Of a stretch of DNA of 21,171 nt, positions 288-560 are shown piece by piece (within the stretch, counting starts at the first letter, position 1; every line of letters starts with the position of its first letter). Where the stretch lies: the NCBI RefSeq assembly GCF_003334355.1, contig NZ_QOWP01000047.1. One strand, 5' to 3'. Below the pieces are notes generated by a model. It saw only the letters and a program-made list of their open reading frames with translations. It was not told where the DNA came from and did not search any database. Position numbers and translations under genes: made by a program. This DNA comes from Escherichia coli (GTDB lineage Bacteria; Pseudomonadota; Gammaproteobacteria; Enterobacterales; Enterobacteriaceae).

Positions 288-314
288 AAAAAAGCGCCCT
301 AAAGGCGCTTTTTT
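288..314 (+). terminator. Intrinsic terminator of the tRNA operon
   Basis: Stem GCGCC (294-298) / GGCGC (304-308) with loop CTAAA, followed by TTTTTT (309-314), directly after the last tRNA. Confidence 0.8.
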
Positions 315-470
315 GCTATTCAGGCATCTCTCAATTTCAATTCTTGACCCTGATGACATACTCCGCGCTTGCTGCGTAAACAACTTTACGTCGGAGGAAT
401 AAGACGCAAAGTGTGGCATTCGGCATCTCATACGTAATTCGAGTGACTTTTCCCCACCATTCGACTATCT

Positions 471-488
471 TGTTTAGCATATAAAACA
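471..488. promoter_or_regulatory. Candidate NadR operator (TGTTTA-N6-AAAACA) in the nadA promoter region
   Basis: TGTTTAGCATATAAAACA lies about 75 bp upstream of the nadA ATG. It resembles the NadR box TGTTTA-N6-TAAACA as I recall it (5 of 6 in the right half-site); nadA-pnuC is the classical NadR-repressed operon. Confidence 0.55.
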
Positions 489-560
489 AATTACACCGAT
501 AACAGCGAATATTACGCTAATGTCGGTTTTAACGTTAAGCCTGTAAAACGAGATGGTAAG

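Follow-up and report, generated by a model that had tools for sequence, protein, structure and literature searches.

A probable NadR operator spans the transcription start site of nadA-pnuC in Escherichia coli

Introduction

That NadR represses nadA-pnuC through boxes in the promoter has stood in the textbooks for both Salmonella and E. coli since the 1990s, and nadA-pnuC is already listed by comparative genomics as the core of the NadR regulon. NAD-bound NadR binds the consensus TGTTTA-N6-TAAACA in the promoters of de novo and salvage genes, and only the enterobacterial NadR carries a DNA-binding helix-turn-helix (HTH) domain (PMC2330245, PMC2330246). The operators of Salmonella enterica and E. 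coli that make up the described set lie at nadA-pnuC, nadB and pncB (Penfound & Foster 1999; Gerasimova & Gelfand 2005, as these works are cited in PMC2330245 and PMC2330246). The genes nadA and pnuC form an operon (PMC5343134, PMC12421817). At the nadA-pnuC promoter of Salmonella, electrophoretic mobility shifts are specific, ChIP-qPCR shows enrichment of NadR, and deletion of nadR derepresses nadA-pnuC 8- to 10-fold; the same 2025 study describes NadR binding to this promoter that depends on NAD, ATP and c-di-GMP (PMC12421817).

Here we analysed a 21,171-nt stretch of E. coli DNA, referred to as the window, that contains the nadA-pnuC locus. A sequence-only reading of this DNA had proposed a NadR-type operator at positions 471-488. 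We find that this site is very probably the operator through which NadR controls the nadA-pnuC promoter, and that it runs from the last base of the -10 hexamer across the mapped transcription start.

Results

Organization of the nadA-pnuC locus

The local gene order is tRNA-Lys (lysQ), a terminator, a 277-nt spacer, nadA and pnuC, with zitB beyond them on the opposite strand. Across 290-620 the window is 100% identical to several complete E. coli genomes, among them ATCC 8739, and this segment matches all 5,426 complete genomes of the species. The first regulated gene, nadA, encodes quinolinate synthase and occupies 561-1604 on the plus strand. It is followed on the same strand by pnuC (1642-2361), which encodes a nicotinamide riboside transporter and is co-transcribed with nadA; a terminator scan found no plus-strand terminator in the 37-nt gap between the two genes. 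Within that gap, 1616-1629 is a perfect 14-bp palindrome, GCGTAACGTTACGC, which the terminator scan scored as weakly terminator-like on the minus strand only.

Upstream, lysQ (208-283) is the only complete tRNA reported by ARAGORN. Directly after it, we read from the sequence the intrinsic terminator of the upstream lysT-family tRNA operon (288-314, plus strand), composed of AAAAAAGCGCC-CTAAA-GGCGCTTTTTT, which isolates nadA from tRNA read-through. A simple terminator scan left 288-314 unflagged because A/T pairs probably extend the stem into the T-run. At the edge of the window, Rfam marks a 5'-truncated tRNA at 1-72 and, in the spacer between the two tRNA-Lys genes, an RtT RNA at 7-174 on the plus strand (56.7 bits; gathering score 45).

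The spacer is variable among E. coli strains. Between ~330 and 432 it exists as two strongly diverged haplotypes, one found in the window, MS21199 and SCU-485 and the other in K-12 and CFE299, the last of which has an additional 28-nt deletion. K-12 also carries an extra 156 nt between lysQ and nadA (654-809 of the extracted K-12 locus). This insert ends in a duplicated tRNA 3' end plus terminator and is missing from the window, where the insertion point falls at ~284. From ~433 onwards the window and K-12 are identical. Since position 433 corresponds to -46 relative to the nadA start, the point at which identity resumes marks the upstream edge of the nadA promoter.

The candidate operator and its relatives

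The site at 471-488 is an 18-base near-palindrome, TGTTTAGCATATAAAACA. Its left half, TGTTTA, matches the NadR consensus at 6/6 positions and its right half, AAAACA, matches TAAACA at 5/6, for a total of 11 of the 12 specified positions. The sequence-only reading had reported this fit and had placed the box upstream of nadA; direct reading and a scan of both strands confirm the first point, and the second is borne out by ATCC 8739, in whose identical sequence the open reading frame at 561-1604 carries the annotation quinolinate synthase NadA. Agreement with the perfect palindrome TGTTTAGTATACTAAACA extends to 15 of 18 positions.

On either strand of the whole window, 471-488 is the sole match with at most one mismatch. 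Boxes of this quality averaged 0.05 in dinucleotide shuffles, with one or more present in 5 of 100 shuffles, and base composition gives an expectation of 0.042 per window and ~5e-4 for the 277-nt lysQ-nadA spacer. Judged within the window alone, the match is thus of borderline significance (p ~0.05), suggestive rather than decisive; its placement and its conservation across genera, described below, put it far beyond chance. Looser matches with up to three mismatches are uninformative because the window holds 11 where 8 are expected. Full-text searches of the literature with the exact 18-mer in either orientation, and with the nadB box, returned no paper.

We aligned the site with the nadA, nadB and pncB sites of K-12. 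K-12 MG1655 carries the same 18-mer 90 nt before the nadA ATG. The nadB box, TGTTTAGTAAATTAAACA, fits the consensus at 12/12 positions and lies 7 nt before the ATG, with a second box bearing two mismatches 74 bp upstream, centre to centre (723-740 and 797-814 of the extracted nadB locus). The pncB box, CGTTTAGTACAATAAACA, fits at 11/12 and lies 30-47 nt before the ATG. Together with the Proteus niaP site, these sequences agree beyond the 12 specified positions, such that the full 18-mer approximates a perfect palindrome. We found no box in the ~1.3 kb upstream of K-12 nadR.

At E. coli nadA the box is single, without a second one upstream. In Pectobacterium and Rahnella, the main nadA box is accompanied by a weaker one 72-74 bp upstream. 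A spacing of roughly seven helical turns thus recurs, which hints that NadR multimers may bind cooperatively or loop the DNA.

The repressor itself is encoded outside the window. The K-12 annotation describes nadR as encoding a DNA-binding repressor and NMN adenylyltransferase, and within the first 228 residues of the protein an HTH_3 domain (residues 7-59, E = 2.1e-9) is followed by a nucleotidyltransferase (cytidylyltransferase-like) domain. The 5' region of nadR was found in 5,425 of the 5,426 complete E. coli genomes. A literature search for NadR ChIP-exo studies found none.

Promoter and transcription start site

From conservation and the position of the start site, we infer a sigma-70 promoter of the form GTGACT-16 nt-TATCTT. 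The putative -35 hexamer, GTGACT (444-449, plus strand), matches TTGACA at 4/6 positions and lies 16 nt upstream of the putative -10 hexamer; relative to the mapped start it occupies -35 to -30. The -10 hexamer, TATCTT (466-471, plus strand), matches TATAAT at 4/6 positions and has the A at position 2 and the T at position 6. A consensus promoter scan reported no sigma-70 promoter between 250 and 700 because the GTGACT/TATCTT pair, at 8/12, falls under the scan's cut-off of 9/12.

The start of nadA-pnuC transcription comes from a single dataset, Cappable-seq of MG1655 grown in minimal medium (PMC4782308, supplementary file 1). Among the plus-strand rows listed there, position 781,226 of U00096.2 has a relative read score of 136.3 and an enrichment of 4.29, and neighbouring start sites among those listed score 1.6 and 3.8. 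To convert U00096.2 to NC_000913.3 coordinates we used an offset of +777, checked on 38 neighbouring start sites by trying offsets from 770 to 784. Only at +777 did 33/38 sites fall on purines and 23/38 show a pyrimidine-purine (YR) step. After conversion, the nadA start is NC_000913.3 782,003, which is position 479 of the window: an A preceded by a C, 8 nt past the -10 hexamer and within the interval of 477-479 predicted from promoter anatomy.

With the start at 479, the box at 471-488 spans -8 to +10, and T471 is shared: it closes the -10 hexamer and opens the NadR box. An alternative -10 element inside the box, TATAAA (480-485), was rejected since the mapped start lies upstream of it.

The Cappable-seq data also contain a second plus-strand start, at U00096.2 782,348 (score 30.6). 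It corresponds to window position 1601, which is still inside nadA, in its final codons, and 41 nt short of the pnuC ATG; a -10-like TACACT lies ahead of it at 1589-1594. No NadR-like box was found near this start at up to three mismatches, and pnuC may therefore have NadR-independent basal transcription besides read-through from nadA.

Conservation within and beyond E. coli

We compared five diverged E. coli alleles, alongside E. albertii, and the box is identical in every one of the E. coli alleles. Substitutions among these alleles fall on both of its flanks, in the spacer between the -35 and -10 hexamers and in the leader.

A scan with the NadA protein, using one genome per species, yielded 80 nadA loci, 24 from Enterobacterales and 56 from other gammaproteobacteria. 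The Enterobacterales loci include Citrobacter, Enterobacter, Erwinia, Pantoea, Pectobacterium, Brenneria, Serratia, Yersinia, Rahnella, Photorhabdus, Providencia, Arsenophonus and E. albertii. All 24 have a NadR box 81-95 nt before the nadA ATG, with at most one mismatch in 20 and two mismatches in the remaining 4. In contrast, none of the 56 other loci (from Vibrio, Shewanella, Aeromonas, Acinetobacter, Pseudoalteromonas and others) has a box with at most one mismatch, and two-mismatch boxes occur in 5 of them at scattered positions. This contrast gives a Fisher p of ~3e-15, uncorrected for phylogeny among loci that are not phylogenetically independent. The split between presence and absence of the box follows the published distribution of the NadR DNA-binding domain.

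Per-column information across 25 Enterobacterales genera revealed an island of near-complete conservation at 466-489 together with the GAC at 445-447; conservation elsewhere is at noise level and collapses from 491. Within the -35 hexamer, G445 and A446 are conserved in 25/25 genera and C447 in 23/25, with flanks at noise level, as is the 16-nt spacer between the hexamers. The -10 columns hold T466 in 24/25, A467 in 25/25, T468 in 25/25, T470 in 24/25 and T471 in 25/25, a nearly invariant TATyTT. Box positions 1-6, 9-11 and 14-17 are invariant in 25/25 genera, with G7 in 23/25, A13 in 21/25 and A18 in 21/25. The central N6 is not free, as its ATA is invariant across the 25 genera. The apparent mismatch to the consensus, A at box position 13, is the conserved state of nadA operators in 21 of the 25.

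Because the conserved block takes in the -10 hexamer and the start, promoter function, as opposed to binding of a repressor, could account for part of its conservation. Taken to its limit, this would make 466-489 only a core promoter, discriminator and initially transcribed sequence, its resemblance to a NadR box incidental and NadR acting elsewhere or indirectly. The departure of position 13 from the palindrome in 21/25 genera fits with such an account, as something besides perfect dyad symmetry shapes the sequence. We nevertheless regard this account as improbable. The conservation is dyad-shaped, with invariant TGTTT and AAACA set 8 bp apart, and core promoters need no such dyad; the invariant AAAC at +6 to +9 has no known promoter role. 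The same dyad recurs at nadB and pncB, whose promoters are unrelated, and it is missing ahead of nadA in lineages whose NadR is described as having no HTH domain. Nor do the looser box scan and per-column conservation across the 25 genera offer another conserved palindrome within 430-560 as a candidate site for NadR.

Binding by some other transcription factor specific to Enterobacterales is very improbable, given that the dyad fits a NadR consensus derived from footprints and comparative genomics and co-occurs at the genetically defined NadR regulon genes nadA-pnuC, nadB and pncB. Our preferred reading of 471-488 therefore stays that of a NadR operator embedded in the nadA-pnuC promoter.

The nadA leader

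Transcription from 479 produces an 82-nt leader (479-560, plus strand) in which a hairpin (495-527) with UUUU directly after it precedes a conserved block at 532-553. Counted with its U-run, the hairpin extends over 495-531; it pairs CCGAUAA with UUGUCGG around an inner AGCG/CGCU stem (-13 kcal/mol, z = -3.9). Folding each sequence separately, we found differently sequenced hairpins in the equivalent position in E. albertii, Citrobacter, Enterobacter sp. Ag1 and Erwinia psidii; the hairpin is a feature of the Escherichia/Citrobacter clade and is not order-wide. A consensus RNA fold of the leader across genera returned no structure because the variable region does not align. As a 5' stem the hairpin could stabilise the mRNA, or it could attenuate transcription weakly. 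It is present only in some clades, and we rejected it as part of the operator mechanism.

The block at 532-553, GTTAAG(N7-8)AAAACGAGA, lies just 5' of the nadA ATG and is common to genera from Escherichia through Erwinia and Pantoea. It is longer than a ribosome-binding site alone would require. Neither leader element is necessary for the NadR model.

A gathering-threshold Rfam scan of the whole window returned two tRNAs and the RtT RNA, all within 1-280, and no family, NAD+ riboswitch families included, matched the nadA leader. That the box is a chance match or acts as RNA structure in the leader is hardly credible: with 0.05 matches expected in the window alone a single match is not overwhelming, but conservation across 25 genera rules out chance, and with transcription starting mid-dyad at 479 the left arm lies outside the transcript, so the palindrome cannot form an RNA hairpin.

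Discussion

We conclude that 471-488 is, with high probability, the operator for NadR control of the sigma-70 nadA-pnuC promoter in E. coli. The proposal of a NadR-type operator at nadA draws support from the consensus match, the boxes at nadB and pncB, conservation in 24/24 Enterobacterales loci against 0/56 others, and the overlap with the start site. Its companion claim, NAD-dependent repression of nadA-pnuC, is likewise supported, with the binding and derepression evidence coming from Salmonella (PMC12421817). We infer that these Salmonella binding data carry over to the E. coli site, which is of identical type.

The position of the box suggests how repression might be exerted. When NAD is plentiful, the N-terminal Cro/C1-type helix-turn-helix domains of NAD-bound NadR would engage the half-sites TGTTT and AAACA. 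On a dyad centred at +1/+2, the protein would cover the start site and the DNA that must melt. RNA polymerase would then probably fail to form a productive open complex, and nadA-pnuC would be repressed by what we take to be steric promoter occlusion. When NAD is low, ATP-bound NadR (or c-di-GMP-bound NadR, following the 2025 Salmonella study) would leave the operator and allow the operon to be transcribed.

A further idea concerns the strength of the site. The nadA operator, with its conserved A13 and its fusion to the -10 hexamer and the start, might be deliberately sub-optimal, so that nadA would be derepressed at a different NAD level from nadB and pncB and the regulon would respond as a graded hierarchy; in Escherichia and Citrobacter, the leader hairpin and U-run (495-531) could add a second, NadR-independent layer. 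We consider this proposal speculative and rather unlikely.

The site is already known and, as a NadR box, ordinary. What our analysis adds is its anatomy in exact form: an operator that runs from the last -10 base over the transcription start, from -8 to +10, and in which both the N6 centre and the mismatch to the consensus are conserved. The site can serve as a clean positive control for motif-based operator calling and has little import beyond annotation.

Among systems with similar names or functions, the 'NadR/nadA' pair of Neisseria consists of a MarR-type regulator and an adhesin gene and has only the names in common with the locus described here. The operators of NiaR (YrxA), NrtR and NadQ and the nadA-motif NAD+ riboswitch of Acidobacteria follow the same logic as NadR, namely feedback repression of de novo NAD genes including nadA, but they involve unrelated proteins, motifs and lineages (PMC2330245, PMC2330246, PMC5343134). 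The riboswitch, moreover, acts at the RNA level, unlike the window's leader, which has no Rfam match. Much closer is the niaP site of Proteus mirabilis, TGTTTAGTATACTAAACA (PMC2330245), whose half-sites and informative centre, G-Y-A-T-A-Y, are shared with the window site. Upstream of niaP, a niacin transporter gene, the 18-bp palindrome is perfect, in contrast to the imperfect nadA version with its fusion to the -10 hexamer. Closest of all are the NadR operators of nadA-pnuC, nadB and pncB in Salmonella enterica and E. coli. A single box is present at E. coli nadA, against two at E. coli nadB, and the right half of the window site reads AAAACA instead of the consensus TAAACA; nothing essential differs. 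As an 18-bp inverted repeat in the promoter of an NAD biosynthesis operon, conserved only together with an HTH-bearing NadR, the site at 471-488 is best placed as the nadA member of this set.
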